Source: Patescibacteria group bacterium (GTDB lineage: Bacteria; Patescibacteriota; Minisyncoccia; Phycocordibacterales; UBA9973). Taken from it: a stretch of 64,000 bases of DNA. Of the stretch, positions 8,615 through 54,963 are shown one piece after another. The stretch lies in contig JAZKAB010000009.1 of assembly GCA_040389365.1 (NCBI GenBank), positions 44,816 to 108,815 of the forward strand, given 5' to 3'. How positions within the stretch are numbered: position 1 is the stretch's first letter; each line of letters starts with the position of its first letter. The position numbers and the translations under genes were made by a program. Below the pieces are notes generated by a model, which saw nothing but the letters and a program-made list of their open reading frames with translations, had not been told where the DNA came from and ran no database searches.

Positions 8615-9556
8615 ATGATCGACATCGACGCCTTAAAAAAGAATCACAAGACCCAATACCTCGCAGAGCAGTACGAAGGTCTTTTGAAGCAGGAGGCTGA
8701 AACGCAGGCGCTTGCCGAGACAGACTCTTCAATGAAGGAAATGGCGCAGGACGAGCTTGAGGCTATTGCCGTGCAGAAGAGCGCGCTTGAAGCGCAGTTC
8801 ATAGCGATCGAAGAGTCAGAAAAGGAAGAGGAGGAGTTTCCAAACGAAATCATTCTTGAAGCCCGTGCAGGCGCGGGCGGCGACGAGGCGAACCTCTTCG
8901 CGCACCAGCTGGTTGAAATGTATTGCCGCTTTGCCGAAAGCAAGGGATGGCAATGGAAGATGACCGACGACATGAGCGTTGAAATCAAGGGGAAGGACGT
9001 GTATCGCTTGCTGCGCTTCGAGACAGGAGTGCACCGCGTGCAGCGCGTTCCTGCAACTGAAAAGAACGGCCGCATCCACACCTCGACTGCGTCCATTGCC
9101 ATTCTGCCTATTAAGAAAAAGGTGACATTTGAAATCAATCCGGCAGACTTGGACATGGAATATTCTCGCTCAGGCGGCGCGGGCGGGCAGAACGTCAACA
9201 AGGTTGAGACGGCCGTGCGCCTCATACACCGCCCGACAGGCATCGACGTGCGCTCAACCAGCGAGCGCAGCCAGCTTGGCAACCGCGAGAAGGCCTTTGC
9301 CATTCTGACTGCCAAGCTGCAGCAAATGAAGGAAGCTGAAGAGGCTGCAAAGTATGCCGGCGATCGCAAGAGCCAGATCGGCACTGCTGATCGCAGCGAA
9401 AAGATTCGTACCTATAACTTCCCGCAAGACCGCCTCACCGACCACCGCATTCGCCAGAACTTCTCCAATATTGAAGGCATTATGGCAGGCAAGCTGGATA
9501 AGGTTATCGACGCGGTGCAGACAGGAGAGTTTGGCGACGCAGCGGAGGAGGAATAG
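8615..9556 (+). CDS. prfA: peptide chain release factor 1
   Basis: It has the GGQ motif ([18 protein letters not shown]) and a PxT tripeptide (RVPATE), which is the RF1 type. There is no internal frameshift site of the kind found in the RF2 gene. Confidence 0.8.
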
Positions 9557-15322: not shown

Positions 15323-15671
15323 ATTGGAATAGGAAGCATCTTTATTGCTGTATAAAGTGCGCTAGGGAGTATGTATAAGAAATTATATTAACGTCGCACA
15401 ATTAAGCCTTATGCGACAAGCTTTTTAATACAATCCACACAATCCACAGCCTATATATGCCTATCTATAAATATTATAAAAATAATATATATGAGATATT
15501 CTTGTGGAAAACTTTATACAGATCGTTAATATCATCGGATTTTGGCATCTATTTTTCTTCGTACTTTTGCTGGGAACAATCCTAGTTGCACTTTTCTACA
15601 TCGCGCTCTCATGGATGGCTTACGGTATCGCTCGCGCTTGGCGCATCGGTATCAAAGGGTCACGCTAAAAC

Positions 15672-16064
15672 GTGCGTCCCATCCCTGAAAAACTAAAAAA
15701 GGAAATGGCCAATGACCCGTACTACGGACAATGCTGCCGCTCTGCCACTGGAGAGTGCAACGGACGCATTACCTGGGAGCACGCGATCATCTACGCCGGA
15801 CGACAGCTCAACGAGAAGTGGGCTATCATTCCTCTTTGCGCCTACCATCATTCCGTTGACCAGCACCAGGACGGCGACGGCCTCAATAAGGAGCTCAACA
15901 TCGCCATTGCCCTCAATCGCGCTACTAATGCGGAGCTTTTCGCCATTTCGAAAGCGACCGACTATATGCGCATGCGCTCGAACCTCAACCTAAAGTATTC
16001 TTTGGGTCTTTCGACGCGACCGCCTACTCCATTGCCAGTCGATCCTTATGAGATCGAGCTATGA
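15672..16064 (+). CDS. HNH endonuclease
   Basis: The product reads CCRSATGECNGRITWEHAIIYAGRQLNEKWAIIPLCAYHH, an HNH motif with Cys and His zinc ligands. HNH nucleases commonly sit next to terminase modules in phages. Confidence 0.7.
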   Translation: MRPIPEKLKKEMANDPYYGQCCRSATGECNGRITWEHAIIYAGRQLNEKWAIIPLCAYHHSVDQHQDGDGLNKELNIAIALNRATNAELFAISKATDYMRMRSNLNLKYSLGLSTRPPTPLPVDPYEIEL

Positions 16065-16396
16065 GAAAGAAGGCTGACATACAGCTGGACCTCGACCAGA
16101 CGATCCGCGAGCGCGATCAGGCAATAAAAGCATTGGGAGACAGCCAGAAGCTGCTCGAGCAGTGCAAGGGAGACGTAATAAGCTTCCGAAACCATCTCGA
16201 GTTCATCGGCAACATGGCCTTCGGTCCCAACTGGATACAGGAGCACTCGATATTCGAGCTCTCAGAAAAGGTGAGGGAAATAATATTCCACCACAACCGC
16301 CTCGAGGGAGGCAGGGACGAAATGGTAAGGCTCTTCAAGCAGTACCACCCTACAGAAAATTTAGCAGCCAAGAAAAAACCACATGCAAAACCCTGA
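16061..16396 (+). CDS. hypothetical phage early protein
   Basis: A 111-aa ORF whose start is coupled to the upstream stop (ATGA). Confidence 0.35.
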   Translation: MRKKADIQLDLDQTIRERDQAIKALGDSQKLLEQCKGDVISFRNHLEFIGNMAFGPNWIQEHSIFELSEKVREIIFHHNRLEGGRDEMVRLFKQYHPTENLAAKKKPHAKP

Positions 16397-16739
16397 AATA
16401 CAAGACATACCGAGAAGCGTCCTCAACCGCTACCTCTCGATGGAAGCCGAATGGATAGACAAGATGTTTGCCGAGCACTGGCCCTCGATATTCTCATGGT
16501 ACGCAAGATCGGCAAACGCGCGGCTGTCAAAGGGTAAAAGGCAGTGGCTCTTCGGAAGAATGCTCACGTTTCTATTCGCCAAGCTCTCCGGACTCACCGT
16601 CCACCGCAACAAGAACATGGAGATGGTGAAGCGCAACGGATTCAGAAACGAGAACGCAATCATTACGAAAAGCGTAACGGTAACTATTAGAAAGCACGAC
16701 AAAGAAGTCGCTAAGGCAGAGTTTCAACTATATGGGTAA
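16383..16739 (+). CDS. hypothetical phage protein
   Basis: A 118-aa ORF in a tightly packed same-strand array. Confidence 0.35.
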   Translation: MQNPEIQDIPRSVLNRYLSMEAEWIDKMFAEHWPSIFSWYARSANARLSKGKRQWLFGRMLTFLFAKLSGLTVHRNKNMEMVKRNGFRNENAIITKSVTVTIRKHDKEVAKAEFQLYG

Positions 16740-16932
16740 AGGACTAGAACGAACAGAAATACTAAGAAAGCCGTGCCCCCAATGCAAGGGCCACGGATAT
16801 GTGACAGGACAGAACGGCGTAGAGTCATTCTGCGAATACTGCATGGGGTCGGGAACACTGGAAAAGGAAGTGCCGTACAAGTTCGATGGCGAAAGGTCAG
16901 CCGAAGAGGTCAAGGAGATCTGGGAGGAATAG
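16732..16932 (+). CDS. small DnaJ-type zinc-finger protein (2x CxxCxGxG)
   Basis: It carries CPQCKGHG and CEYCMGSG, two canonical CxxCxGxG repeats. Confidence 0.4.
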   Translation: MGKGLERTEILRKPCPQCKGHGYVTGQNGVESFCEYCMGSGTLEKEVPYKFDGERSAEEVKEIWEE

Positions 16933-17107
16933 GAAGAGAATCCTTACCCCCAACATCCCGCCCGGCATAGATCCGGACGACTACTGCTCGCGCTGCCACT
17001 ATCCCATTGAGGGAATGAGGTTCAGAGACCTCTCAGCCGTGCGGTCCATACACCTCTGCCTGTACATGTGCGCATACTGCCAAGACCAGGAAAATAAATC
17101 CGTTTAA
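16886..17107 (+). CDS. zinc-ribbon small protein, hypothetical
   Basis: The product contains CSRCHY...CAYCQ. It overlaps the upstream ORF by 47 nt, so its start is uncertain. Confidence 0.25.
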   Translation: MAKGQPKRSRRSGRNRKRILTPNIPPGIDPDDYCSRCHYPIEGMRFRDLSAVRSIHLCLYMCAYCQDQENKSV

Positions 17108-17625
17108 TGCCATTTATTATGAGAAAAGGTAAAGAAAAGGAACTCGACTATATTCCCGAAACATGCACCTGCTGCTCTCAGACCACCACCTACGCGCTCA
17201 CTCTCGACCGCGGATCGGTGGAGATACTGAAAAAGCTCGCAAGGTATATCGGGAGAAAGGGAGAGAACGTCGTATGTCCCCGAAAGGAAAAGGAATGCGG
17301 CCTCACCCAGAACGAGATTTGCAATCTCATACGCCCGCGGTCCCACGGCCTGATCGCTCCATACAAGGATCTGCCCGGACACTTCGTACTCACGAGAAAG
17401 GGCGCACAATTCCTTCACGGAAAAGAAATTCCCAAAACAGCCATACGCAGCAAGGTAGAAAACCGAACGCTCGGATACTGGAAGGAGGAAGAAGACAAGT
17501 GCACCATAGCGGACTTCGACAACGGGTCCACGTATTGGGAAGGAATGCAGTACGACATTGTCAACGAAATAGTGGTCCCGTTCGCGGTCCCGTCGTCTAC
17601 CCAGCCAACCTTATTCGCAATATGA
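17107..17625 (+). CDS. hypothetical phage protein (Cys-rich N-terminus)
   Basis: A 172-aa product with diverse composition. The overlapping alternative frame is Arg/His-rich and low-complexity. Confidence 0.35.
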   Translation: MPFIMRKGKEKELDYIPETCTCCSQTTTYALTLDRGSVEILKKLARYIGRKGENVVCPRKEKECGLTQNEICNLIRPRSHGLIAPYKDLPGHFVLTRKGAQFLHGKEIPKTAIRSKVENRTLGYWKEEEDKCTIADFDNGSTYWEGMQYDIVNEIVVPFAVPSSTQPTLFAI

Positions 17626-18134
17626 AATATTATTCAAACAAGCCAAAGACAAGAATCATAGTGCTCTTCGATGACGGCCTCCTCGAGCACTACCACTCAA
17701 TTGCCGCAAAGGACATGCCGTCGTTTGACGTCCTATCCACCCAGTTCGTGAAGATGCCCCAGGACAAGCCCCGCATCCCGAGCAGCCCGAGAGAGGGAAC
17801 GAATACGGAGATAGTGATACGCGCCGCGCTGCTCGGAAAGCTCTCAAACGAGATCCATCAGGAAACCGGCGTGCCTATCACTTCCGTCTATACCATCATG
17901 TCCAACGCGAGAAAGGCGGGACTCATCCCGAAAGACCTGCCTGCCTCAGTGGAGAGCGAGGAAACGATCGCCGAAGCCCTCAAGGAGGAAATGGTGATCG
18001 ACCGAATCAGGGAGTTATGGGTTGATACCGACATGGATACCCGCGAAGTGTGCGAGGAGCTCGGCATATCGCTTGCCTACTTTAACAGCCTAATTGTGGA
18101 GAACAACATCTGCAAGACAATCAGTCAATTATGA
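17622..18134 (+). CDS. DNA-binding protein with two helix-turn-helix-like segments
   Basis: The start MKYYSNKP is coupled by ATGA to the upstream stop. The two HTH-like segments are IVIRAALLGKLSNEIHQETGVPITSVYTIMSNARKAG and TREVCEELGISLAYFNSLI. Confidence 0.4.
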   Translation: MKYYSNKPKTRIIVLFDDGLLEHYHSIAAKDMPSFDVLSTQFVKMPQDKPRIPSSPREGTNTEIVIRAALLGKLSNEIHQETGVPITSVYTIMSNARKAGLIPKDLPASVESEETIAEALKEEMVIDRIRELWVDTDMDTREVCEELGISLAYFNSLIVENNICKTISQL

Positions 18135-18433
18135 AAAAACTGCATTGGATGTGCGAAAGATTCCATTCCACTGATTTAGCTGGTGCGCCGTGCCCGAAGT
18201 GCGCTAATTTCAAATGCGGTAAGAGCTATTCTGAAAAGCTAAGGGAACAAGTCGATGCGATCCCCAGAGAAATGAAGCAGGCGTTGCTGGATAACGTATG
18301 GTCAGGGATGAAGCTTGGCGAAGCTGCAGTAAAGGCCGGATTCAAAGAAGACGATACTCCTATATACGCTCAGATAATGTCTGACAACATTGAAAACAAT
18401 AACTATTACTCGCTAAGAAAACAGGTTGCATAA
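18131..18433 (+). CDS. hypothetical zinc-ribbon/HTH small protein
   Basis: It has a CPKCANFKC motif followed by an HTH-like stretch (KQALLDNVWSGMKLGEAAVKAGF). Confidence 0.35.
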   Translation: MKKLHWMCERFHSTDLAGAPCPKCANFKCGKSYSEKLREQVDAIPREMKQALLDNVWSGMKLGEAAVKAGFKEDDTPIYAQIMSDNIENNNYYSLRKQVA

Positions 18434-18728
18434 AATGCCAAAACTAACTGACGTCCAAAACACGATACTCAAAGCATTCTTCGATCTTCAAATGACCGAT
18501 GAAGGGTATTTCAACGACGACGAAACGCCGTTGATGCTTTACAGCAGGCTTGAAGAAAAGACCGGCATAAAAAAAGCCTATCTTCAAATCGAGGTAAGGG
18601 AGCTGCGCAATATGGGCATCCTATGGCTTGCCCAGGCTGTAGACCAGGACTATGTCCCAAGCGGCAGTGGATGGTGCCTTACTGATCCTAAAGGAGTCGA
18701 TATTGTCAGAGAATTATTTTTCACATAA
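18426..18728 (+). CDS. hypothetical phage protein
   Basis: A 100-aa ORF with coupled start and stop. Confidence 0.35.
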   Translation: MHKMPKLTDVQNTILKAFFDLQMTDEGYFNDDETPLMLYSRLEEKTGIKKAYLQIEVRELRNMGILWLAQAVDQDYVPSGSGWCLTDPKGVDIVRELFFT

Positions 18729-18730
18729 AT

Positions 18731-19339
18731 ATGGACGAACACGTATCCAACTGCTGCAAGGCTGCAATAAAGAATGTACAGGTCCCGGGCGGCAACTTCA
18801 TGTCCATCTGCAAGCAGTGCGAGCAGGAGTGCGACCTTATCCCTGCAGAGCAGGAGCCGGACGATACTGACTGCGGTAACAAGGACTTCCGAGTTATCTG
18901 CCGCCAGCCGTTCTGCAAGAGCTGCAAGCCGAAAGCTCCGAGAAGAATTGAAGACCTTGGCGAAACCATAACCCCTTCGAACATAGTGGGAGTATTCACT
19001 GGAGCTATTCAAAAGATCAACGAGCACAACGTATTTGACCGCATGGTCCCAGCAAGCCAGCTGAGAGAAAAGCCCATAGACCTCATGTTTGTAGTAGGAT
19101 GGCTGCTTTCTGACGATACTGGCACTTCAAGCAAGGCGTTGTGCCGCCACATGCTCGGAATAAAGGGCGATCATTGCGCCCCAAGCGACCAGGGAGACAG
19201 GGGTAGGTGCATAAGGCTTCTGAAAATGGTCCCGCAGTGGTTTGACCGCCTCAACGAGATGTCAATGTACCCGGACTGGAGAGAGCAGGTAATGCTGATC
19301 CAGGGAGAGATGAATATTATTAAGGTTCCACTAGTTTAA
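18731..19339 (+). CDS. cysteine-rich hypothetical protein
   Basis: It has more than 12 Cys residues in multiple CxxC pairs (CKQCEQEC, CKSCKPK). Confidence 0.35.
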   Translation: MDEHVSNCCKAAIKNVQVPGGNFMSICKQCEQECDLIPAEQEPDDTDCGNKDFRVICRQPFCKSCKPKAPRRIEDLGETITPSNIVGVFTGAIQKINEHNVFDRMVPASQLREKPIDLMFVVGWLLSDDTGTSSKALCRHMLGIKGDHCAPSDQGDRGRCIRLLKMVPQWFDRLNEMSMYPDWREQVMLIQGEMNIIKVPLV

Positions 19340-19346
19340 ATTATTT

Positions 19347-19634
19347 ATGAAAGTAGACTATTCTCCGCGAAGAAGCGGCAAAACAACACGACTCATAGAA
19401 TATATGAGAGCAACGCCAGGAGCTGTAATGCTCACGTTTAACTACAATATGGCAATGATTCTTAAGGGCGAGTACCCGGATCTTGCCGACAGGATAGTTG
19501 ACTGGAAGAGCTATACCCCGTTTATCAACAGTTCGGTAAGGCCGATTAAGGAAGTGGTGATAGACAATGCCGACCTTGTGATCAGCCAGCTTTTCAAGCT
19601 ACCAGTTACCAGAATTAGCATGAGCGAGGAATAG
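19347..19634 (+). CDS. hypothetical phage protein
   Basis: A 95-aa ORF. Confidence 0.3.
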   Translation: MKVDYSPRRSGKTTRLIEYMRATPGAVMLTFNYNMAMILKGEYPDLADRIVDWKSYTPFINSSVRPIKEVVIDNADLVISQLFKLPVTRISMSEE

Positions 19635-19635
19635 T

Positions 19636-20097
19636 ATGGAAACAAAATACTACCTCACATATGACGATTCTCTGCTAGTAGTGGTCGATGGAACCATAGC
19701 CGTATTGCCGCCCCTCACTTTCAGGGAGGTCCCAGAAAGCTTTATAAGGGAAATTCCGCACCTTTCCCAAGTCCAAGTGATTGAAAAGGTCACTGATCCC
19801 AAATACAAGATTCTTGCCGTAGGAGTTTCTGACGTTCCTCCGAAGGGACGAGGCCGTCCAAAGAAAGTGGTCCCAGAGGCCGCTGACAAGGGCAGGGTCG
19901 AAGTTAAGCAGAAAGTGTCCTTCGCGAAGCGCGAGGAGCTCGTAAGAGCCTATGGGCGCACTGTGGTAAACAAGGTAATAGACATGGCTCTGGTAGGCGA
20001 GGAAGAGCAGACGATTGCCGACGACAGCGACGTTAACCTTAAGGTAAAGCACGTTCGCATCATCAAGGATCAGCTAGGGATGGAGCTGGAGAAGTAG
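19636..20097 (+). CDS. hypothetical protein with an AT-hook-like motif (PKGRGRPKK)
   Basis: A 153-aa product carrying a GRGRPKK AT-hook motif. Confidence 0.35.
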   Translation: METKYYLTYDDSLLVVVDGTIAVLPPLTFREVPESFIREIPHLSQVQVIEKVTDPKYKILAVGVSDVPPKGRGRPKKVVPEAADKGRVEVKQKVSFAKREELVRAYGRTVVNKVIDMALVGEEEQTIADDSDVNLKVKHVRIIKDQLGMELEK

Positions 20098-20098
20098 G

Positions 20099-20293
20099 AT
20101 GGAAGAAGGTAAAGATTTTATAAATACCAGAGGTAAGACCATCGAGCAGTTAGATGAGGAGTGGAAAGCCATGGGAAAGCCACCGCTTGCATTCATTGAT
20201 GACATTGAGGGAAGGCTATATCTATCCAAAATGCTTCCATCTATGCCTGGAGAGAAAAATAAGAGCCATATACCATGGCTAAAAGGAAAATAA
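20099..20293 (+). CDS. hypothetical small protein
   Basis: A 64-aa ORF. Confidence 0.25.
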   Translation: MEEGKDFINTRGKTIEQLDEEWKAMGKPPLAFIDDIEGRLYLSKMLPSMPGEKNKSHIPWLKGK

Positions 20294-20322
20294 TCAATTA
20301 TCAGAGCAATAGAGATAACATT

Positions 20323-20604
20323 ATGAACAAAGAACCAAAAAACAATTTCATGTGCGAGATGTGTGCAAAGAAAATATCTTCGTTTGAAGCCTTTGAAAGG
20401 GGAGGTTATATCTACTGCACCGAATGTGTAAATAAATTGGAACAGAAAGAAGCTCAAAAAAGACAGCCAATGGTCATTCAGTTCGGAATATTCCCCAAGT
20501 GGTGGAAGTTCCAGTCCCAGACCATCTATAACACCTCATACATATGGAAAAGGGTGGGATGGCTAGGTATTTCTATTGCGTGGGTAGACAAATATTTGCA
20601 ATAA
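20323..20604 (+). CDS. zinc-ribbon small protein
   Basis: The product contains CEMCAKK...CTECVNK. The ORF is open from 20275, and the start at MNKEPK was chosen to avoid overlap. Confidence 0.3.
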   Translation: MNKEPKNNFMCEMCAKKISSFEAFERGGYIYCTECVNKLEQKEAQKRQPMVIQFGIFPKWWKFQSQTIYNTSYIWKRVGWLGISIAWVDKYLQ

Positions 20605-20613
20605 ATTTCCCAA

Positions 20614-20865
20614 ATGAAGCAAGAAACATACAGAAGTAATGGTTATCGACAGGTCCTGGTATGCAGATCTAAAGTCTTCTATCGGACAAAGGCACTCGCA
20701 TGGGATAAGTCACTGTTCTTTTTCAGGCAGTTCGGCGAATATGAGGTCCCATACAGGTGCAAGCACTGTTCCCGGTATCATCTTTCAAAAAAATGGAACG
20801 AAGAACAACCTTCACTAGAGTTTATAGAGGGATTCAATAAGTGGTTTGGCCGGGAAGTTCTGTAG
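20614..20865 (+). CDS. hypothetical small protein
   Basis: An 83-aa ORF containing a CKHCSRYH motif. Confidence 0.3.
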   Translation: MKQETYRSNGYRQVLVCRSKVFYRTKALAWDKSLFFFRQFGEYEVPYRCKHCSRYHLSKKWNEEQPSLEFIEGFNKWFGREVL

Positions 20866-20918
20866 CTATCACAGAGATCTTAAGACTGTCAAATTAAGTC
20901 TATATTATTAAAGGATAT

Positions 20919-21443
20919 ATGGCAGCTAACAAAACCTCTCCAAAGATCCCCAAGGAGAAGACACTAAAAAATATCAACCATGAGCTTTTCTGCATGCTCT
21001 ATGCTGGCGGCGCAAACCCTGACTTCTTTGGCAACGCATCGAAATCATACCTTGCCGCCTTCAAATACGACGAGCAGATCAACAAGCTCGAAGAGGAGCT
21101 GAAAACCATTCCCTATAGCAAGGACAAGGAGCGAAAAGAGAAGCAGTCTGCCATCCTCAAGGTGAACAATTCAGCCAGAGTCCTTGGAAATAGGCTTTTA
21201 ACAAAGGTAGACATAAAGGCAAGAGTGGCAGTGCTTTACAAGGCGCTATATACGCACGATGCAGCCGATCAGTCTCTTGCATATGCAATGCGCCAGCGCA
21301 AGGATATAGCCTCTGCAGTAAGCGCCGTGAAGGAATACAACCGCGTTACCAAGCGCGTTGAGGAAAAGGTAGAGATCACCAACAAGGTATACCGCTGGGC
21401 AACTACAGAAGAGGAAGCGAAGACAGCCGCAAACGGCGGCTAA
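20919..21443 (+). CDS. terminase small subunit (Terminase_2-like)
   Basis: The N-terminus ELFCMLYAGGANPDFFGNASKSYLAAFKYDE matches the F-C..Y...GN...AY..AGY pattern of phage TerS. It lies directly upstream of the large terminase gene. Confidence 0.55.
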   Translation: MAANKTSPKIPKEKTLKNINHELFCMLYAGGANPDFFGNASKSYLAAFKYDEQINKLEEELKTIPYSKDKERKEKQSAILKVNNSARVLGNRLLTKVDIKARVAVLYKALYTHDAADQSLAYAMRQRKDIASAVSAVKEYNRVTKRVEEKVEITNKVYRWATTEEEAKTAANGG

Positions 21444-21675: not shown

Positions 21676-22065
21676 ATGCTAAAGGTTTCAAAGGAAATGC
21701 ATCCAATATATTACGAGTGCAAGCGACGCTTCGGAGTGAGCTGGGACGGCGGCGTATGCTGCGTATATGGCGACACTGCATACTGCAAGTACGACCTTCG
21801 ACCTGACGTTATCGCCCATGAGTCTGTTCACGTGCGCCAGCAGAGCGAAATGGGCCCTATGGAATGGTGGAAGCGGTACTTTGCGGACAAGAAGTTCCGA
21901 CTGGAGCAGGAGATCGAGGCATACAAGGAGCAAATGAAGTTTGTCCGTGAGAACTGCAGTAGGGACTTCAAGCGCGACATACTGAGAAAGTGCGCCCATG
22001 ACCTTGCGGGTCCGATGTACGGAAACATGATCACCTTATCAGAAGCATTCTCGATACTGGAATGA
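21676..22065 (+). CDS. small HExxH-motif protein (putative minimal metallopeptidase), hypothetical
   Basis: It has an AHESVHVRQ (HExxH) motif. The RBS is GAGGGGG. Its stop overlaps the terL start. Confidence 0.35.
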   Translation: MLKVSKEMHPIYYECKRRFGVSWDGGVCCVYGDTAYCKYDLRPDVIAHESVHVRQQSEMGPMEWWKRYFADKKFRLEQEIEAYKEQMKFVRENCSRDFKRDILRKCAHDLAGPMYGNMITLSEAFSILE

Positions 22066-28084: not shown

Positions 28085-29293
28085 ATGTTAAACGCACTGA
28101 CTCCAATGAGTCCTACATACTGGTCAAAGCGAATGGGCTACAAGCTCTACAAGACGGATATCTTCCGTTCACTCGCTAACTTCGAAGAGCAAGCAACTCT
28201 TACGGATGGCCAGAAGGTTGATCGACCTTATCGAGCAAACATTGTTAGTGAAAACTACAGTAAGGGTACAGCGCTTACGGCGCAAGACCTTACTGCAACA
28301 TCTGATCAGCTTACAGTTGATACTGTTAAGGCTATGTTGCTCTACGTGGATAACGTGGACAAGATCCAAAACAAGTACTCTGCAGCTAACCAGTGGATTG
28401 ATGAAGCGGGCCACCGCTTGTCAAACTCTATCGATGCAAAGTTCCTTTACCAGGTGTTCCAGGCTAACAACACTGTCGATGACGGTGATCTAGGCGGAAC
28501 TGCTGGCGACGGGCTTACATTGACGACAGGCAACGTTCTTGACGTGTTCGGCGCGATTAACCTCAAGCTTGACGCAAACAACGTTCCTGACGATGCAGGC
28601 TCTCGTTTCTTCGCTTTCTCTCCTCAGTTCTACAACGTGCTATGGAAATACCTAGCCGGAAAGGAAAGTTTGCTTGGAGACAAGACAGGCGAAAACGGCA
28701 ACATTGGTACTTACGCAGGCTTGCGCTTGTTCAAGACCAATAACCTTACAGGTTCTGCTCGTTGGACTCCTGCAAACCGTCCTTCTGCTGCTGACACTAT
28801 CACTATTCAGGGAATCACTTTCACTTTCCAGACCACTATCGGTACTGGAGCTGGAGCTGTTCTCTCAGTGACTGACACTTCTACGACTCTTGGCAACCTT
28901 GTTGCCTTGATCAACGCAGGCGGTGTTGGAGATGGCGTGAATAACGTATCTTTGTCACTAGCAAACCAGCGTGTCGTACAAGACTGGGTAGCCGTTAACG
29001 GTACTACTTACGTTGAAGTGCGCGCGATGGGATCTTCATACCTTACAGTTACTGGCTCAGACGTTGCAGACGTATGGACAGCGACTCAGCAGATCCAGAA
29101 CAACATTGCTGGACGAAAGGGAGTATCAATCGACGCCGTGATCCAGAAGGAACCGGGCGTAGAAATGGGCTCTACTATCGCTGCAGGCAAGTCTGGTATG
29201 AACATTCTCCCTATGACATTGTTCGGCGTTTACGTCTTCAATCAGGGCAAGAATGAACTAGTTCGCGTAAAGATTCGTACTGACGCTTTCTAG
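28085..29293 (+). CDS. putative major capsid protein
   Basis: A 402-aa gene follows the scaffold-like gene. Codon usage looks highly expressed. The assignment is by position, with no diagnostic motif. Confidence 0.45.
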   Translation: MLNALTPMSPTYWSKRMGYKLYKTDIFRSLANFEEQATLTDGQKVDRPYRANIVSENYSKGTALTAQDLTATSDQLTVDTVKAMLLYVDNVDKIQNKYSAANQWIDEAGHRLSNSIDAKFLYQVFQANNTVDDGDLGGTAGDGLTLTTGNVLDVFGAINLKLDANNVPDDAGSRFFAFSPQFYNVLWKYLAGKESLLGDKTGENGNIGTYAGLRLFKTNNLTGSARWTPANRPSAADTITIQGITFTFQTTIGTGAGAVLSVTDTSTTLGNLVALINAGGVGDGVNNVSLSLANQRVVQDWVAVNGTTYVEVRAMGSSYLTVTGSDVADVWTATQQIQNNIAGRKGVSIDAVIQKEPGVEMGSTIAAGKSGMNILPMTLFGVYVFNQGKNELVRVKIRTDAF

Positions 29294-34261: not shown

Positions 34262-34507
34262 ATGCAAAAAACTTACACAGCAACATTCCATATATCGACC
34301 GTTATTACTGTCATTATTGCGCTTGTTTTGCTTGCGGTATTAACATTGTGTTCTAAATTTGAGCCTCACAAGAAAGTTAAAATATGTAAAGACTTCAAGA
34401 CATGGGTCAGCGCGCAGGAAGCGTTCAATGCTGATTCGGTCAAGTATTCTGGTCTCGATAGGGACGGTGACAAAAGAGTCTGCGAATCAATGAAAAAATC
34501 CCTATGA
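34262..34507 (+). CDS. small single-TM protein (holin-like candidate)
   Basis: An 81-aa product with one TM helix. Confidence 0.3.
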   Translation: MQKTYTATFHISTVITVIIALVLLAVLTLCSKFEPHKKVKICKDFKTWVSAQEAFNADSVKYSGLDRDGDKRVCESMKKSL

Positions 34508-34776
34508 ATGAAGAACAAAATCCACACAATCCAAAGGTAACGATCAAGACGCAGAACTTCTTCGAGGCGGTGCGCATCAACTGGTCCATCATCATGTTTA
34601 TCGTCGCGATCTGCTTTGCGATGATCACCGCATATACAAACCTCAAAGAGGTCCAGGCGCAGACCACTACAAATACCAGCGACATCAAGTCTCTCGACCA
34701 GCGACTCAGCGACACCGAAGGCGACATAAAGGCAATTCGAGAGGGTATCGACTATTTAAAACTAAGAGCTCAATAA
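34504..34776 (+). CDS. small TM + coiled-coil protein (holin/spanin-like candidate)
   Basis: A 90-aa product with a TM helix followed by a coiled coil. Its start and stop are coupled to neighbouring genes. Confidence 0.3.
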   Translation: MNEEQNPHNPKVTIKTQNFFEAVRINWSIIMFIVAICFAMITAYTNLKEVQAQTTTNTSDIKSLDQRLSDTEGDIKAIREGIDYLKLRAQ

Positions 34777-35687
34777 TGGAAAAGACAGAAAAGAAAATTA
34801 AAGACGGACTGCTGCCATTGCCTGCAGACACTCGCGATTATCCTCACGCAATGGTATTCGGCGCCTTGCCGCTCAAGGCGCTCCCTTCCCAGGACTTTGC
34901 GGTAATGGAGCCATTGGGCATCAAAGACCAGTCCGCCACAGGAGACGAGGACTTTTGCACGGCTTTCAGCTCATGTGCCGTGTCAGAAGACCAGGAGTCA
35001 GTACTGCTTAACCCCGAGTACATTTTTATGAAGAGCAAGATCCTTTCCGGCGATCCGGAGAAGTGGGGCCAGGATCTCAGAGCGATTTGCAAGGCGCACT
35101 GTAAGTTCGGCACGATCGAACAGCAATACTTTCCATACCTCAACAACCCGCAGGAGCGGGACTTTTACGTTGATCCCAAGAACTGGAGCGAGGAGCTGGA
35201 CATGCTGGCTTTCGAGCACCGCAAGAACTCATTCTTCGCAGTGGACGGTCCGCATGACACGTTCGACAACTTCCGCATGACGCTATGGCAGAACAAGGAT
35301 CAGTTCCAGTCAATAGTTACAGGGGCAAACTGGAAGCCGTCATGGACTTCGGCTCCGGGCGGAATAATTTCTGAAACTGAAACTGCTGAGGAGGGAAGTC
35401 CTCATGCTTTTAAGATCTACGGCCAGAAGACTATCGACGGCAAGATGTACCTTGTGGCGCAGCTTTCAAACGGCATAGATATCGGAGACATGGGCATTTT
35501 CTATTTCCCTCGATCGGTAGTGAACAAGGAGTTTGTATTCGGCGCCTTTATCTTTCATGACATGCCGAAGGATATGGCTGCGTATCACGCAGAAAATGGC
35601 ATCTCGGTCCATGACTCGCTTCTCAAGAAGTTCATCAAGGTCATAAACAACATATTTATCAGCTATTTTAAGAGCAAACTACTATGA
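34776..35687 (+). CDS. papain-like (C1-type) cysteine peptidase-fold protein
   Basis: DFCTAFSSCA resembles the papain motif CGSCWAFS, and HAFKIYGQ resembles the catalytic His strand. Confidence 0.4.
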   Translation: MEKTEKKIKDGLLPLPADTRDYPHAMVFGALPLKALPSQDFAVMEPLGIKDQSATGDEDFCTAFSSCAVSEDQESVLLNPEYIFMKSKILSGDPEKWGQDLRAICKAHCKFGTIEQQYFPYLNNPQERDFYVDPKNWSEELDMLAFEHRKNSFFAVDGPHDTFDNFRMTLWQNKDQFQSIVTGANWKPSWTSAPGGIISETETAEEGSPHAFKIYGQKTIDGKMYLVAQLSNGIDIGDMGIFYFPRSVVNKEFVFGAFIFHDMPKDMAAYHAENGISVHDSLLKKFIKVINNIFISYFKSKLL

Positions 35688-36340
35688 ATGGAGACGAACT
35701 GGCAACGCAATTTAGAAACCTCGTAGACGACGACTTCGATACTACCCACATGTATCAGCTGTTTTCTCAGGCGAAGAACAATATCGAGCGAACATACAAG
35801 CCCGAGGTTCTCAAGAAGCTCGACCAGACTCAGACTTCAAGCGTTGGCGACTCGTACAATACCGCAAAGGCCCTGCCCGCAGACTTCCGCACATTCTGCA
35901 AGGTGTATCTTGGCCGGATTGAATACTTGTTCGTAACCTTCGAGCAGTCTGTAATGTATCGAAACGCTCCGCGCAAGATATTCGCCAATTATGGAGCGAA
36001 TACTTTTTCGCCTACAGGCCCGGTAAGCGTTGCCGACACATGGAGCATATTTTACATACCGAAGACGGAAGACTTTACCGAAGACAATGCCGACGAAGTG
36101 GTGTGCCTGTGGCCTTCTGAATTTCATCCGCTTATCCCATACGAGGCGGCGAAGATTTATCAGGCAAACATTGACGCCGACGCCATCGCATTTCGCATGT
36201 CAGCGGCTCAGGAAAAGGAATATGACCGTCTTCTCAATGCATTCATTCACTGGGATCACGACATCAAGCTCGCCGCGATGAATGGCCAGACAGGATTTGC
36301 AGATCAGGGAGATTATCCGATTGACATAGGAATGCTTTAG
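35684..36340 (+). CDS. hypothetical structural protein
   Basis: A 218-aa ORF. Confidence 0.4.
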   Translation: MNGDELATQFRNLVDDDFDTTHMYQLFSQAKNNIERTYKPEVLKKLDQTQTSSVGDSYNTAKALPADFRTFCKVYLGRIEYLFVTFEQSVMYRNAPRKIFANYGANTFSPTGPVSVADTWSIFYIPKTEDFTEDNADEVVCLWPSEFHPLIPYEAAKIYQANIDADAIAFRMSAAQEKEYDRLLNAFIHWDHDIKLAAMNGQTGFADQGDYPIDIGML

Positions 36341-47510: not shown

Positions 47511-47672
47511 ATGACCCTAAAGACACCAGTAAAAGAAATATCGGAAAAGCTTGGCGTCAGCACCCAGGCTGTTTACCTGTGGAAGGCCGGCAAGTCTTTG
47601 CCTTCTTCCAAGAACCTGCTAAAGCTTGCGGAAATGGAAGGAACGACAGTGGACAGCCTTCTAAATAGCTAG
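47511..47672 (+). CDS. Cro/XRE-like helix-turn-helix regulator (53 aa)
   Basis: MTLKTPVKEISEKLGVSTQAVYLWKAGKSLPSSKNLLKLAEMEG is a classic Cro/CI-type HTH. It is not in the ORF track because it is shorter than 60 aa. Confidence 0.5.
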   Translation: MTLKTPVKEISEKLGVSTQAVYLWKAGKSLPSSKNLLKLAEMEGTTVDSLLNS

Positions 47673-49884: not shown

Positions 49885-50715
49885 CTAAATGTATTTTTTA
49901 GCCAGTCGCTTGAACTCGTCCGGCAGTAGGGATGTATACATTTGAGTCGATATGATGGTCCGGTGCCTCAGCACTTCCTTGATGTCATTGAGGTGTGCCC
50001 CGTCCTTGAGCATCTTGTGCGCTTTCCCGTGCCTGAACATGTGCGGATGGACATTGTGACCTATTCCGGCATTCGTCGCTACTGAGGCGACCCAGCGCTC
50101 TACAGAGCGGGTAGTGATGCGCTCGCCCTTGCGGTTCGTGAACAGCGCGGGGTGCTCGTCAAGGCAAAGCTTGGTCCCTATGTACCGCATCAAGAGCTTG
50201 TGAGATTTTCCGCTCCACATGATCCAATCCATATGCCTGTTTTTCTTGGTGACGATCTTGGCGAAGTGGCGAGTGTTCTTTATATCGAGCACGTCCAGGT
50301 CGCACAATTCAGATACTCGTATGCCCGTACTCCACAATAGGTTGATGACAAGCTTCTTCTGCAGGGAATAGTACTCCCATTCGCTCAGCGACTTGTCCAT
50401 CATCCTGAACTCCTGCTCCGTAATGAAAGAGACGGGCTCAGGGGTAAATTTTGGCCGCTTGATCAGCTTCGGGTTTACCTCGGTGCGGTAGTATGAAAAG
50501 AAGTCTTTCAGTATGTTTACATAATAGACTATGGTTCTCGGCTTGAACGGGAGGGAAGCGATGAAGCTGGTAACGTCGCTTTGCGCTATCTTTGTCATCT
50601 CCTTTGAGCAGTGCTTCTCGAATGCTGCCAAGCACGGCGCATAGGAAATAGAGGCGGGAACCGCGTAGCTCCTTTTCCAATCCAGATATTCAGTTATTGC
50701 TCTTGATATATGCAT
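49885..50715 (-). CDS. tyrosine recombinase / phage integrase (XerD-like)
   Basis: It has the C-terminal catalytic motifs HMFRHGKAHKML...LRHRTIISTQMYT (R-H-R-Y). The ORF is open to 50814, and the start at MHISRAITEY is preferred. Confidence 0.75.
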   Translation of the reverse strand: MHISRAITEYLDWKRSYAVPASISYAPCLAAFEKHCSKEMTKIAQSDVTSFIASLPFKPRTIVYYVNILKDFFSYYRTEVNPKLIKRPKFTPEPVSFITEQEFRMMDKSLSEWEYYSLQKKLVINLLWSTGIRVSELCDLDVLDIKNTRHFAKIVTKKNRHMDWIMWSGKSHKLLMRYIGTKLCLDEHPALFTNRKGERITTRSVERWVASVATNAGIGHNVHPHMFRHGKAHKMLKDGAHLNDIKEVLRHRTIISTQMYTSLLPDEFKRLAKKYI

Positions 50716-50943
50716 AAAACACAAAACCGCGGGGAAAAACCGCGGTTCGTGCTGTTGCAACATAGCCCAAAAGAGGGCCACGATCAGTATAGCAAAATCC
50801 ATTGTTTTCCCCATACCCTTGCGGGCACGTCCTTTGCAGGCAACGGCGTTATTCGGTTATGTTCGCATATTAACCTTATATTAGATTATGTCAAGTAGGG
50901 AAGCATCTTAATACTTTTATGCTCAAGTTCTATACTTTTAAAC

Positions 50944-51932: not shown

Positions 51933-52301
51933 TTAAAACTCTCTTTTCTCGAAAGAAACGGCATGATTTACAATTTGGCCAGTGAACCACTGGCTATAAA
52001 AACAAAGGCGGATTGTAATTATTAAGTCTAGGATGTAAAGGGAAACCTTGCCATTCTGTGGAAATGAGCTGATCTGAAACAATACTGACAATACGATAGT
52101 AATTACTATAACTGTAAAATTGATAATTATTTTTCTACTATTTTCCCCTCGTGTAATTTTCAATGTAACTTCACCGCTCTTACTTTTGTGATCTTTCCAT
52201 CTTGAATACAAAAATAAGGTCACTATAATTATTTGTAAGATTATAAACCATAGCATATCACTTTGAATGAGAGTTGTTAGTTTGATTATGCAAATATTCA
52301 T
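51933..52301 (-). CDS. membrane protein, hypothetical (distal gene of the R-M operon)
   Basis: A 122-aa product with three TM helices. The DNA here is AT-rich. Confidence 0.35.
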   Translation of the reverse strand: MNICIIKLTTLIQSDMLWFIILQIIIVTLFLYSRWKDHKSKSGEVTLKITRGENSRKIIINFTVIVITIVLSVLFQISSFPQNGKVSLYILDLIITIRLCFYSQWFTGQIVNHAVSFEKREF

Positions 52302-52316
52302 ATTAATTAGTTATTA

Positions 52317-53576
52317 TTATATAGGCTCAACTATATCCATGGTTTTTAGATCAGGTTTTTTTTCAAGCATAGCGATTAAACATTTTCCTATATGATATCC
52401 AAGATTTACGGGAACTGCATTTCCGATTTGCTTATATTGAGATGATGTTGAACCTTGAAAATCCCAATTGTCAGGGAACGACTGTATACGCGCATATTCA
52501 CGAACCGTAAGAGGACGAGTTTCTTCTGGGTGACATCTTTCCGTTTGCTTTTGAGCGGGCGCACAGGTTAAAGTCAAACTTGGTTCATCCCAAGATAGCC
52601 TTCGTGCCATTCCTGTCTTGCCTCCTCCTAAATAAAAGCTTCCTTGCATATATTCTTTCTGAAGATCTATTGGAAGATCTCTCCAGTATCCCCCTTGTGG
52701 GATCAGGCTCAATATTTCCTTCTTTCTTTTAGGATATTGTTGCCCTGCTGATATTGGTACATTTTGCAAAGCCTCTCTTAAGCTAACTGTGTAATCTTGT
52801 TCTTTTGGAAAAAGTATAGGTAGGTCTAGGTCGTTGCGCACCCCTAAAATTACCAATCTTTCGCGTTTTTGTGCAACATCTAAGTATTGTGATCTAAGTA
52901 CTTTATAGGCAACTTTATATCCTAGCTCCTTTAGAACAGAGATAATTACCGGCAATGTTTTTCCTTCATCATGAGTCAATAAGCCTTTAACATTTTCACC
53001 CATAAAAATTTTAGGGCGTATTTCTTTTACACATCTTGCGAGTTCGAAAAACAACGTTCCGCGAGCGTCATTAAACCCCATTTTTTTCCCAGCTTCACTA
53101 AAAGCTTGGCAAGGAAACCCACCTTCAACAATATCTGCCTTATATCCGCTGAAATCAAAATCTCTTACATCGGCTCTAACCGCATTCCATTCCGGATGGT
53201 TCTTGTTTAGTGTAGAAACAGAATCCTTATCCAAATCAACCAGCAATGCATGCTTTAAACCAGCATTTTCAAAACCGAGTGCTGTTCCACCTGCACCTGC
53301 AAAAAGTTCCACCACCGTATAGCCGGTTTTTTTATTTGACTTAAGTACTTTGAATTTATTCCCATTGCTTTTTCCTGCAATTTTTTCCTGCAATTTTTTA
53401 ATTTCAGAAAAACTAAAAAGCCTATGATTTTGATCAGATCGAGTAGCTTTAATTAACCCTTTTTTTTCCCACCTTCTAATAGTATCGGTTGAAACGTCTA
53501 TTGCTTCTGCTGCCTCATGAACATTTAATAGCTTATCCATGGCTATAGTATATATTAGTACCCTTGCTATATGCAA
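52317..53576 (-). CDS. DNA (cytosine-5)-methyltransferase with an N-terminal helix-turn-helix domain
   Basis: It has motif I (ELFAGAGGTALGFENAG), motif IV (GGFPCQAFS), ENV, and an N-terminal HTH (LNVHEAAEAIDVSTDTIRRWEKKGLI). Confidence 0.8.
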   Translation of the reverse strand: MHIARVLIYTIAMDKLLNVHEAAEAIDVSTDTIRRWEKKGLIKATRSDQNHRLFSFSEIKKLQEKIAGKSNGNKFKVLKSNKKTGYTVVELFAGAGGTALGFENAGLKHALLVDLDKDSVSTLNKNHPEWNAVRADVRDFDFSGYKADIVEGGFPCQAFSEAGKKMGFNDARGTLFFELARCVKEIRPKIFMGENVKGLLTHDEGKTLPVIISVLKELGYKVAYKVLRSQYLDVAQKRERLVILGVRNDLDLPILFPKEQDYTVSLREALQNVPISAGQQYPKRKKEILSLIPQGGYWRDLPIDLQKEYMQGSFYLGGGKTGMARRLSWDEPSLTLTCAPAQKQTERCHPEETRPLTVREYARIQSFPDNWDFQGSTSSQYKQIGNAVPVNLGYHIGKCLIAMLEKKPDLKTMDIVEPI

Positions 53577-53581
53577 GGGTA

Positions 53582-54298
53582 CTAATATATTTTATCAAAT
53601 AATGCTTTGTAGGAATCAGATTTAATTAATTGGGTTGGCGATTTCTTCAGCGCAATGCATGTAATTAATATTAAATTCATATAAATTTTTTCCAAAGCAT
53701 TTGGGTCTCCCGTAGCTAGTTCATAAAAGCTTTTCCCATCAATAACCCTTATCTTTTCATTTATTGGACGCCTAGATTTTGAATTATTATCTGAAGGAGT
53801 AAAAGAATTATTATAAACTTTTTTATTTTTAGGTATTATTTCAACATAATATCCTATATATCCTTCATATGTAGTATTTAGTAAACCATTGAGATTGTCG
53901 TAAATAGCAGTTTTATGATTACCTTTAGTTGTATTATGCTTATTCTTAACCTCAGCTATTATTTTCTTTTTAGTATTCTTAACATCTATTATCTTCCCTG
54001 TCCCAAGGTTTTCCCAGCCCTTAAATGAGCCAATAACATTTTGGTGAAACTCACCTAGTGCATTCTGAAGGCTTTTTTGAATTTGACGTGCTTTTTCTTG
54101 TTCAATCCAATCGGAAATTGAAATGTTTTTTAAAAGGCTTTCGAATAAGGCAGAAAATGGGTCAACGGAGTTTTTATAGAAATCCGCATCGCTTTTTTCA
54201 AGAGATCTTTTAGCAACTGAAATAACCGCATTTACATGTTTTGTTAAATCTTCATTCGATATAAATGGTAATTCTGGCACTATAATCTTACTGTTCAT
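53582..54298 (-). CDS. putative type II restriction endonuclease (partner of the C5 methyltransferase)
   Basis: A 238-aa AT-rich gene lies immediately upstream of the MTase gene in the same operon. It has no diagnostic motif, and the call is by context. Confidence 0.45.
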   Translation of the reverse strand: MNSKIIVPELPFISNEDLTKHVNAVISVAKRSLEKSDADFYKNSVDPFSALFESLLKNISISDWIEQEKARQIQKSLQNALGEFHQNVIGSFKGWENLGTGKIIDVKNTKKKIIAEVKNKHNTTKGNHKTAIYDNLNGLLNTTYEGYIGYYVEIIPKNKKVYNNSFTPSDNNSKSRRPINEKIRVIDGKSFYELATGDPNALEKIYMNLILITCIALKKSPTQLIKSDSYKALFDKIY

Positions 54299-54393
54299 GT
54301 TGTTATGATATCTTAATCTTGTCGAAATTACCATCTCTTAAATTAGGCTATAATTTATCTTTTCTTGATACAATACTACAACATTTTACTTCT

Positions 54394-54819
54394 ATGCCCG
54401 ATATCTTCACCCCTCAAAAAAGAAGCGAGATCATGTCGCTCATTCGCTCAAAGAATACCAAACCTGAGCTGGTATTCTTCAGGCTGCTAAGCGTCGCCTT
54501 TCATTCAAAAGGCTATCGATACCGCAAGCACTATAATTCCCTTCCTGGGCGTCCTGACGCAGTGTTTGTATCTCGAAAAATAGCACTGTTTGTTGATGGC
54601 GATTTCTGGCACGGCTATCGATTCGATCTCGCAACGACAAGGCTTGCCGAAGGATACTGGAGGGACAAGATAGTGCGCAATATGCAGCGTGATAGAGCCG
54701 TAAATAGGAAGCTTAAGAAAGCAGGCTGGACTGTCATGCGCTTCTGGGAGCATGATGTAAAGAAGCATCCTGAGAAGATTGTATTAAAGATTGAAAAGAA
54801 GCTGCAGATTTCTGAATAA
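54394..54819 (+). CDS. vsr: very short patch repair endonuclease
   Basis: It has TPQKRSEIMSLIRSKNTKPE and FVDGDFWHG, which are Vsr family signatures. It is divergent from the REase gene. Confidence 0.8.
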   Translation: MPDIFTPQKRSEIMSLIRSKNTKPELVFFRLLSVAFHSKGYRYRKHYNSLPGRPDAVFVSRKIALFVDGDFWHGYRFDLATTRLAEGYWRDKIVRNMQRDRAVNRKLKKAGWTVMRFWEHDVKKHPEKIVLKIEKKLQISE

Positions 54820-54930
54820 TGGCAAATGTTATTTTTGTGCTATGATTAGTTCGTACTTGTACTTTTGATTTTTATAGTTTTTCAGCCCCATATTTCCAGC
54901 AACGGAAGTATGGGGTTTTTCATATATGCA

Positions 54931-54957
54931 ATAAAAAAGCCGAGGTTCTCTCGGCTT
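54931..54957 (-). terminator. terminator for the - strand methyltransferase gene (aagccgag-gttct-ctcggctt plus a T-run on the - strand)
   Basis: An 8-bp stem is followed by a T6 run on the - strand. Confidence 0.5.
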
Positions 54958-54963
54958 TAACAG

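Follow-up and report, generated by a model that had tools for sequence, protein, structure and literature searches.

A run of small, cysteine-rich genes ahead of the terminase genes of a Patescibacteria prophage is probably a delayed-early, nin-type block

The window considered here is a 64,000-nucleotide (nt) stretch of contig JAZKAB010000009.1 (assembly GCA_040389365.1, contig positions 44,816 to 108,815) from a metagenome-assembled genome (MAG) that NCBI lists as "Patescibacteria group bacterium". At window positions 16061 to 20865 it carries a run of small open reading frames (ORFs) that is enriched in cysteine motifs. An initial annotation, made from the sequence, had read the density of these metal-binding mini-proteins as the mark of a toolkit for host takeover or DNA compaction. 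Our analysis indicates that the run is probably the delayed-early, nin-type non-structural gene block of a temperate, podovirus-like prophage of ~35.6 kb in a member of the Patescibacteria (candidate phyla radiation, CPR).

The small-gene array and its coding support

The prophage spans approximately 15.33 to 50.91 kb of the window, wherein the small-gene block is located just inside the left end. Genes for the small and large terminase subunits, the portal, and the major head protein follow directly, and an integrase gene is present at the far end, which agrees with the earlier designation of this DNA as a phage region. The earlier guess that the phage infects a CPR bacterium also proved right, because the source MAG (locus tags V4478_03215 to 03270 in the block, on a 113-kb contig) is named Patescibacteria. 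In the block, small genes are closely packed in one direction, and the packaging genes of a temperate phage come right after them.

Between positions 16061 and 20865 there are 14 head-to-tail ORFs on the plus strand, encoding proteins of 64 to 202 amino acids (1616 in total). Neighboring ORFs meet at junctions of -47 to +9 nt, often with an overlap of the ATGA type. The ORFs are listed below together with the gene at the right edge of the block. All coordinates refer to the window, proteins are named by the first nucleotide of their ORF, and loci used for comparison carry numbers with the prefix L.

16061..16396, plus strand: ORFan of 111 amino acids (V4478_03215); codon usage positive, singleton cluster, no homolog in related loci
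16383..16739, plus strand: basic protein of 118 amino acids (V4478_03220); phmmer E = 4.5e-9 to L004 361-711
16732..16932, plus strand: protein of 66 amino acids (V4478_03225) with two CxxCxGxG motifs; one predicted zinc site
16886..17107, plus strand: doubtful ORF of 73 amino acids with two CxxC motifs; codon-usage score negative, publicly unannotated
17107..17625, plus strand: protein of 172 amino acids with an N-terminal CxxC; three homologs among 5.8 billion proteins
17622..18134, plus strand: acidic protein of 170 amino acids with two predicted helix-turn-helix (HTH) units (approximately residues 45-105 and 120-165)
18131..18433, plus strand: protein of 100 amino acids (V4478_03240) with an N-terminal C-x12-CxxC-x4-C; codon usage positive, singleton cluster
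18426..18728, plus strand: acidic ORFan of 97-100 amino acids (TTG start at 18426 or ATG at 18435); codon usage positive
18731..19339, plus strand: two-module protein of 202 amino acids; N-terminal module with 10 cysteines, C-terminal helical phage domain
19347..19634, plus strand: protein of 95 amino acids with a P-loop-like SGKTT and an hhhhDNAD motif; 36% identical homolog in L004
19636..20097, plus strand: ORFan of 153 amino acids with an AT-hook-like PKGRGRPKK (approximately residues 69-79) between its N- and C-terminal halves
20099..20293, plus strand: ORFan of 64 amino acids (V4478_03265); codon usage weakly positive, annotated, singleton cluster
20275..20604, plus strand: protein of 93-109 amino acids (annotated as 93) with a CxxC-x17-CxxC ribbon and an aromatic, hydrophobic C terminus
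20614..20865, plus strand: doubtful ORF of 83 amino acids; codon-usage score near zero or negative, publicly unannotated
20919..21443, plus strand: small terminase subunit (phrog_51), the right edge of the block; homologs in L003, L004, L029, and L032

Coding potential was evaluated with codon frequencies trained on 14 large genes of the prophage, wherein each ORF was scored in frame versus both shifted frames. The in-frame score is positive for 12 of the 14 ORFs, the exceptions being 16886-17107 and 20614-20865. Competing ORFs of the plus strand resemble out-of-frame sequence in their scores, and most competitors on the minus strand fall below the chosen set. The same 12 ORFs are annotated as hypothetical proteins in the NCBI MAG, and the two exceptions appear in no public annotation. 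Thus, the initial description of about 15 consecutive small ORFs holds for the gap-free, co-directional array, and its count is revised to 14 ORFs, two of them doubtful.

We lean slightly toward the explanation that the two doubtful ORFs are chance frames and that the DNA they occupy serves as regulatory spacers, the second perhaps with a late promoter before the small terminase gene. These two alone have codon-usage scores at or below zero, public annotation passes over them among 12 annotated neighbors, and a promoter-like site is present at positions 20880 to 20908. Against this explanation, both ORFs fit the gap-free packing and carry CxxC motifs, codon statistics are noisy for ORFs this short, and promoter-like sites are no more common than in shuffled sequence. 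If 16886-17107 is noncoding, positions 16933 to 17106 become a 174-nt spacer; if 20614-20865 is noncoding, positions 20605 to 20918 become a spacer of 314 nt before the small terminase gene. We considered an RNA element in 16933-17106 and rejected it, as its fold is no better than those of shuffled sequences and Rfam returned nothing.

Cysteine motifs and relatives of the block genes

The enrichment of CxxC motifs in the block is strong, with 11 in 1616 amino acids (6.8 per 1000), versus none in 8653 amino acids of packaging, structural, and lysis proteins of the prophage and none in 6091 amino acids of flanking non-prophage proteins. Within-protein shuffling reached 11 motifs in 0 of 5000 trials, and the cysteine content of the block is 2.66% versus 0.50% in the packaging, structural, and lysis proteins. 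When the two doubtful ORFs are left out, eight motifs are retained, which is still far over background. The initial annotation went further in stating that many of the proteins carry pairs of CxxC motifs. Two or more are present in only three of the well-supported proteins (16732, 18731, and 20275), a single motif occurs in 17107 and 18131, and the other seven have none. Two CxxC knuckles ~10 to 30 residues apart are found in 16732, 18731 (several), 20275, and the doubtful 16886.

This density of cysteine motifs is ordinary for a small-gene region of a phage. The ren-nin-Q interval of phage lambda also has 11 CxxC motifs (10 genes, 1405 amino acids; 7.8 per 1000), versus two in 6019 amino acids of 19 lambda structural proteins (0.3 per 1000). 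With an identical greedy ORF call, small ORFs of up to 210 amino acids in 13 further phage loci gave 0 to 4.7 CxxC per 1000 amino acids (at least 2 in 8 of the 13 loci) and large proteins gave 0 to 1.6. Because the density equals that of the lambda nin region, it does not call for a special metal-protein toolkit. Moreover, lambda owns replication genes, so cysteine-rich mini-proteins in such a position tell nothing about the replacement of replication proteins.

Related phages were found by using the large terminase subunit as an anchor. For 9 of the 14 ORFs, no relative was detected, either in phages with a 55 to 68% identical large terminase or in any of the other searches. Pfam, PHROGs, and NCBIfam leave nearly all ORFs of the block unassigned, NCBIfam and PDB sequence searches gave nothing significant, and blastn with the entire block found no DNA match among 50,697 phage records. 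The initial annotation had made conservation and purifying selection in related phages the test of its proposal, and the outcome goes largely against it: nine ORFs lack a homolog, and the two tested ORFs show purifying selection. It had also suggested looking for co-occurrence of the genes in CPR phage contigs. The five conserved ORFs (16383, 16732, 17107, 18731, and 19347) recur singly, in differing neighborhoods, and not as a set.

Two loci are particularly informative in this regard. The first, L004/L077, is a 40-kb viral contig that appears nearly complete and encodes, in order, a giant protein, an amidase, the Holliday-junction resolvase RusA, small ORFs, the small terminase subunit, more small ORFs, a peptide deformylase, and the large terminase subunit. 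Homologs of 16383, 16732, and 19347 are present there in an order that differs from that of the prophage: the 16383-like gene directly after RusA (L004 2-364), then the DnaJ-finger gene (16732-like), the small terminase gene, a cysteine/histidine-rich protein, and the 19347-like gene. The second, L032, has lysis genes, small ORFs, a Dcm methylase, a DnaJ-finger gene directly before the small terminase gene, a peptide deformylase, and the large terminase gene. In the loci compared, the neighbors of the 17107 and 18731 homologs match no other ORF of the block. This pattern is that expected of a mosaic accessory or early region of a phage, and the sequence comparisons do not suggest a co-adapted set.

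The peptide deformylase gene of L004 (8447-8932; Pfam E = 2.9e-11) is directly upstream of the large terminase gene, and an ORF that looks homologous by eye occupies the equivalent position in L032 (9079-9555); the prophage in the window has no such gene. A further ORF in L032 (1761-2075, 104 amino acids) resembles by eye a stand-alone HTH of the DnaA domain IV type (...AHARFVAYYILNKYYRVTISDIARLFNKDHSSIINGVDKV) and may encode a putative small origin-binding protein. Several relatives of the large terminase (L033, L044, L046, L060, and L069) derive from sample fractions labeled "01um" and "Hain". The first label presumably denotes 0.1 µm filters and the second probably Hainich groundwater, and the "01um" origin fits free phage particles or ultra-small hosts.

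Among the individual proteins, 16732 was initially credited with two canonical DnaJ fingers. The two motifs (CPQCKGHG and CEYCMGSG) are exact, and the score against the DnaJ_CXXCXGXG family (PF00684) is 22.1 bits (E = 1.8e-4), which is below the gathering cut-off of 32.7. The protein aligns with two adjacent CxxCxGxG repeats of Escherichia coli DnaJ (1exk, residues 29-64), with a marginal whole-sequence E value of 0.026. In DnaJ, these are repeats 2 and 3, and together they make up a single zinc site. Among PDB sequences, 2mf8, a eukaryotic zinc-finger chain, matches best (whole-sequence E = 9e-4), but no single stretch of it passes. Homologs in L004 and L032 are 46 to 49% identical and keep all four cysteines, wherein the first motif of L032 reads CxxCxxxG, and the ratio of nonsynonymous (dN) to synonymous (dS) substitution rates is ~0.24. 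Thus, 16732 has the two motifs and four conserved cysteines of a single-zinc CxxCxGxG mini-finger. Unlike the DnaJ cysteine-rich domain, it has two repeats rather than four and lacks both a J domain and the C-terminal substrate-binding domains; it is a stand-alone phage protein of 66 amino acids and not a J-domain chaperone.

Other likenesses of 16732 are to the single-zinc families Anti-TRAP and DUF5351, which, along with Lar, gave Pfam matches below cut-off, and to a PHROG described as "anti-termination protein Q-like" (weak, E = 0.0013). P2 Ogr, P4 Delta, and Mu Com are phage zinc-finger regulators of 60 to 110 amino acids that have one four-cysteine site and are found near late genes. The 16732 homolog located upstream of the small terminase gene in L032 invites comparison with these proteins in position and size. 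Entirely by this analogy, 16732 might act as an Ogr/Delta/Com-like regulator.

The three homologs of 17107 keep the N-terminal CxxC in the alignment. In L075 and L076, homologs are found between genes for ERF, or RecT plus PDDEXK/FtsK-type proteins, and genes for HTH_36 initiator-like plus IstB/DnaC-type proteins. The helix-strand pattern in the central part of 17107 could fit a winged helix, an assignment of low confidence, and an AlphaFold2 model from a four-sequence alignment (predicted local distance difference test score 41) was too poor for a fold search.

An exhaustive HMMER search of 1.84 billion representatives with 17622 gave 16 weak matches (E = 2.5e-8 to 9e-4), wherein the two halves of the protein match stretches of HTH-repeat proteins. 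Seven of 10 relatives scanned carry HTH families such as HTH_23 and Sigma70_r4, five of them as multi-HTH repeats, and because of this 17622 is predicted to be a DNA binder with two HTH units. Direct matches to Pfam are below threshold (TrmB, and Sigma70_r4_2 at 15.8 bits versus a cut-off of 25.7). Of two HTH proteins originally reported for the block, 17622 is thus upheld through its distant relatives, and the other ORFs have no HTH match.

Protein 18731 is composed of two modules. The N-terminal one (the first 66 residues) is 77% identical to a single soil-metagenome protein (67% over 82 aligned residues), with every cysteine kept, a dN of 0.17, and a saturated dS. The C-terminal domain (approximately residues 120-196), which has the motif W.LSDDTGTSSK...DRGRCIRLLK, was recovered by the search in 25 further proteins and is also present in five cultured phages, in all cases annotated as hypothetical. 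Elsewhere it adjoins RecT or Rad52 genes within similar arrays of small ORFs. This half of 18731 is a widespread, confidently folding phage domain without a known fold or function.

For 19347, weak AAA_24 and PHROG matches fall below threshold. A "Rosetta-stone" link between 18731 and 19347 was dropped, as the N-terminal SPKAAGKTT of some C-domain homologs is a P-loop-like similarity of nine residues (E = 0.05). The GRGRPKK motif that was first noted as an AT-hook is present in 19636, and the AT_hook profile (PF02178) scores 13.5 bits (E = 0.067), below the cut-off of 17.4. Its sequence stands alone, without homologs, and matches only itself among 5.8 billion proteins. For 20275, all zinc-finger matches are below threshold and the codon-usage score is weak. 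No family match to Pfam, PHROG, or NCBIfam was obtained for 18131, nor for 18426, which also has no PDB match and is called as 97 amino acids in L027. Isoelectric points in the block are mixed, spanning 4.7 to 10.2, with acidic or neutral values for roughly half of the proteins. IMG/VR pattern scans with 17622, 19636, and 16732 gave no relatives, although such scans need exact eight-residue words and are too insensitive for these proteins.

Boundaries and other genes of the prophage

Outside the block, the prophage and its junctions include the following features.

15332..15345: probable attL core GGAAGCATCTTTAT, with host genes to its left and a 13/14 match at 50899-50912, by the integrase gene
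15346..15503, plus strand: AT-rich noncoding stretch upstream of the array, with ACAATCCACA twice in tandem at 15430-15448
15504..15668, plus strand: hydrophobic ORF of 54 amino acids, the first gene of the array; codon-usage score positive
15672..16064, plus strand: cysteine/histidine-rich protein of 130 amino acids; 47-49% identical homologs in L004 and L008
22062..23486, plus strand: large terminase subunit (Pfam Terminase_6N, phrog_2); relatives of up to 68% identity
23520-25535: portal
28085-29293: major head protein
35684-36340: SU10-type adaptor
49885..50814, minus strand: tyrosine integrase at the right end of the prophage (Pfam Phage_integrase, E = 2.9e-26)
50899..50912: probable attR core GGAAGCATCTTAAT, from local alignment of the two junction regions; a tRNA-Met follows at 51165

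The att direct repeat, GGAAGCATCTT(T/A)AT, agrees at 13 of 14 positions, and its local-alignment score was reached by 7 of 500 shuffles. The tRNA-Met gene is 250 nt past the right copy, without overlap. The 15.3 kb of the window that precede the prophage are unremarkable host chromosome, including genes for a split transketolase, a PfkB kinase, a class II aldolase, ribosomal protein L25, a release factor, tRNA-Ile, an RsmI-type methylase, an S41 peptidase, L9, and a CAP-domain protein. The release-factor gene (8615-9556) is called at only 313 amino acids and its PCRF match begins at profile position 32; the N terminus may have been missed through an RF2-type programmed frameshift or a wrong start. 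Beyond the right end of the prophage, a low-GC island (52000-55700; 34-40% GC versus ~50%) includes a MerR-fused C-5 cytosine DNA methylase (52317-53576) and may be a restriction-modification or mobile island.

From its sequence, we infer that the AT-rich stretch at 15346-15503 may be the early promoter/operator region. Its tandem element (9-10 nt, twice) has a second copy at 34517-34535, identical at 18 of 19 positions (AAAATCCACACAATCCAAA) and located at the beginning of a structural-module ORF (34504-34776). We rejected the element as a shared regulatory signal, as the second copy is inside a probable gene and the overall count equals chance. The first ORF of the array, 15504-15668, resembles by eye a 62-amino-acid ORF of L004 (5532-5720; common YIALSW), and phmmer at E <= 0.01 gave no match. 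The cysteine/histidine-rich protein 15672 looks HNH-like by eye and has no match in Pfam, PHROG, NCBIfam, or PDB. In L008, its homolog is directly upstream of an ORF that looks RusA-like by eye. Searches of cultured phages by tblastn with 15672, 16732, and 17622 returned nothing.

The gene order of the prophage is small ORFs, small terminase, a 129-amino-acid HExxH protein, large terminase, portal, major head protein, SU10-type adaptor, a 1722-amino-acid protein, two membrane ORFs on the minus strand, a 55-amino-acid zinc ribbon, a 53-amino-acid HTH_3 protein, lysin, and integrase. The lysin, which carries a peptidoglycan-binding domain, is located at the far end before the minus-strand integrase gene. 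The 129-amino-acid protein between the terminase genes (21676-22065) has an HExxH motif (AHESVH) and six cysteines, its homologs in L029 and L076 are directly upstream of the large terminase gene, and it may be a small metalloprotease-like packaging accessory. The 1722-amino-acid protein (41511-46679) includes a sub-threshold stretch (residues ~327-439) similar to PARP/ART-PolyVal ADP-ribosyltransferases, and its C-terminal tail is HNH-like. In appearance it resembles a "polyvalent" ejected protein, and L077 (632-7147) has an ORF of 2171 amino acids in the equivalent position. An insert between the virion genes and the lysin gene (46685-47672) comprises the minus-strand membrane ORFs (46685-46873 and 46876-47112), the zinc ribbon (47340-47507, with a homolog at L076 12620-12982), and the HTH_3 or CI-like protein (47511-47672), and may be an immunity or regulatory switch.

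Interpretation of the block

The lambda nin region is a well-known cluster of small early phage genes, and lambdoid nin regions carry resolvase-type genes. Like the block, lambda nin (ren-ninB..ninI-Q) is a co-directional, overlapping series of ~10 small genes between the early and the late or packaging genes, with a similar number of CxxC motifs and a mosaic gene content. The RusA gene in the equivalent array of L004/L077 is a further likeness to lambdoid nin regions. There are also differences, wherein no ORF of the block matches a Nin family in Pfam or PHROG, and lambda nin has O and P before it and Q plus the lysis genes after it, whereas the array in the window runs directly into the terminase genes. 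Moreover, the host in the window is a CPR bacterium, and no replication gene is recognizable.

If the block is a delayed-early region of this kind, it would be read toward the right as a single, closely packed array with coupled translation, from the AT-rich region just inside attL directly on into the genes for the terminase and virion. The products would be mixed, independent small proteins rather than parts of one machine. They would include the tandem-HTH DNA binder 17622, the CxxC protein 17107, the one-zinc mini-finger 16732, the cysteine-rich module and helical domain of 18731, the P-loop-like 19347, and lineage-specific ORFans, one of them AT-hook-like. Zinc ribbons may offer tiny proteins an inexpensive way to fold and to bind DNA, RNA, or another protein, a use also known from early proteins of other phages. 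Jointly, we infer, the genes could control phage development (transcription timing, origin recognition, and recruitment of host replication or recombination proteins) and interfere with host defenses, and they would be gained and lost singly via mosaic exchange.

Several points weigh against this interpretation. No replication genes are recognizable, and therefore the block may hold functions more essential than those of the dispensable lambda nin region. The terms "early" and "one operon" reflect position only, and the promoter scan identified no promoter, with promoter-like sites not above chance. The terminator scan, for its part, gave no plus-strand terminator-like site inside the block. 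Zinc binding is predicted from motifs, the roles of the nine ORFs without relatives are guesses, and of two structure predictions one (17107) was unusable.

A possible but doubtful alternative is that the block is mainly a disguised minimal replication or recombination module, wherein 17107, 17622, or 15672 binds the origin and recruits the host replisome or recombination proteins. The earlier statement that classical replication proteins are absent agrees with our scans of the prophage with Pfam, PHROGs, and NCBIfam, in which no polymerase, primase, helicase, loader, initiator, or recombinase was recognized, nor any repressor of the usual size. A small origin-binding protein would explain why no classical replication gene is seen. 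Likewise, L004/L077 and L032 have no recognizable polymerase, helicase, or primase. The setting of the only three 17107 relatives, between recombinase genes and the initiator-like and IstB/DnaC-type genes of L075 and L076, also speaks for this alternative, as do the two predicted HTH units of 17622, the RusA gene at the head of the equivalent L004/L077 array, and the DnaA domain IV HTH-like small ORF seen by eye in L032. On the other side, inside the block only short two-copy repeats at chance level were found and no origin-like iterons or operators, no protein is homologous to an initiator family in Pfam, PHROG, or NCBIfam, and the 17107 relatives of L075 and L076 occur alongside an ordinary initiator and loader and hence are no substitutes there. 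In addition, the tools used would miss a strongly diverged replication protein encoded by one of the unassigned larger ORFs.

With no replication gene recognized in the prophage and in two relatives, the lineage may rely on the host replisome, and recruitment by a small, unrecognized protein is a modest possibility. Such reliance should not be taken as a finding, since divergent proteins escape profile libraries and the checks based on structure were limited in extent. In its strongest form, the idea is that the prophage, L004/L077, and L032 constitute a lineage without canonical initiator, helicase, loader, primase, or polymerase, in which a small zinc or HTH protein (the 17107 family or 17622) starts replication. 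We consider this quite improbable; if true, the small protein would represent a new kind of adaptor that links the origin to the pared-down replisome in an ultra-small host. Of these phages, only the prophage in the window has an established CPR host, and L004/L077 and L032 do not. Loss of a replication module by deletion, which would make the prophage defective, is unlikely because L004/L077 and L032 have the same layout.

It is also improbable that the block is largely a hypervariable accessory or anti-defense island of rapidly swapped small inhibitors of restriction or other immunity. Nine of the 14 ORFs are without a relative even in phages with a large terminase of 55 to 68% identity, the block would be transcribed first if the array is read from its att-proximal end, 16732 has its weak match to the Lar restriction-alleviation zinc ribbon, and a Dcm methylase is encoded in the host flank. 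However, no significant match to an anti-defense family was seen (Lar scores 19.2 bits versus a cut-off of 28.6), with the PADLOC library, a collection of defense rather than anti-defense proteins, left unsearched, and conserved members of the block occur in replication-recombination contexts elsewhere.

The toolkit proposed in the initial annotation, wherein metal-binding mini-proteins for host takeover or DNA compaction replace classical replication and regulatory proteins, is very unlikely: the enrichment in CxxC is real, an AT-hook-like motif is present, and no classical replication or regulatory protein is recognized, but the cysteine-motif density is the same in the nin region of lambda, which has the O and P replication genes, and similar in several other phage loci, no HU, IHF, H-NS, or histone-like family is matched in Pfam or NCBIfam, the composition is not the uniformly basic one of nucleoid-associated proteins, the AT-hook protein is an ORFan, and the genes do not travel as a set. 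Small host-takeover gene blocks do exist in phages, such as the 26-gene module of SPO1, a cluster of many small early genes described in one report (bioRxiv 10.1101/569657). SPO1 is a large virulent phage with documented host shut-off by its module, whereas the phage in the window is temperate, as its integrase indicates, and lacks homology to it. Integrated prophages of ~40 kb have been described in CPR genomes among groundwater MAGs (PMC12455944), where there is no gene-level account of a small-gene block. Patescibacteria prophages and clusters of small early genes were thus both known before, and the block belongs to a known kind.

For the reading of phage genomes, a run of tiny CxxC-rich ORFs upstream of the terminase genes is the normal look of a delayed-early region and by itself gives no ground for proposing a special system. 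What the locus does provide is a well-delimited prophage from the Patescibacteria, a group whose phage gene content is still poorly described, and a phage lineage without a replication gene recognizable by current profile libraries, which is a thread worth following.

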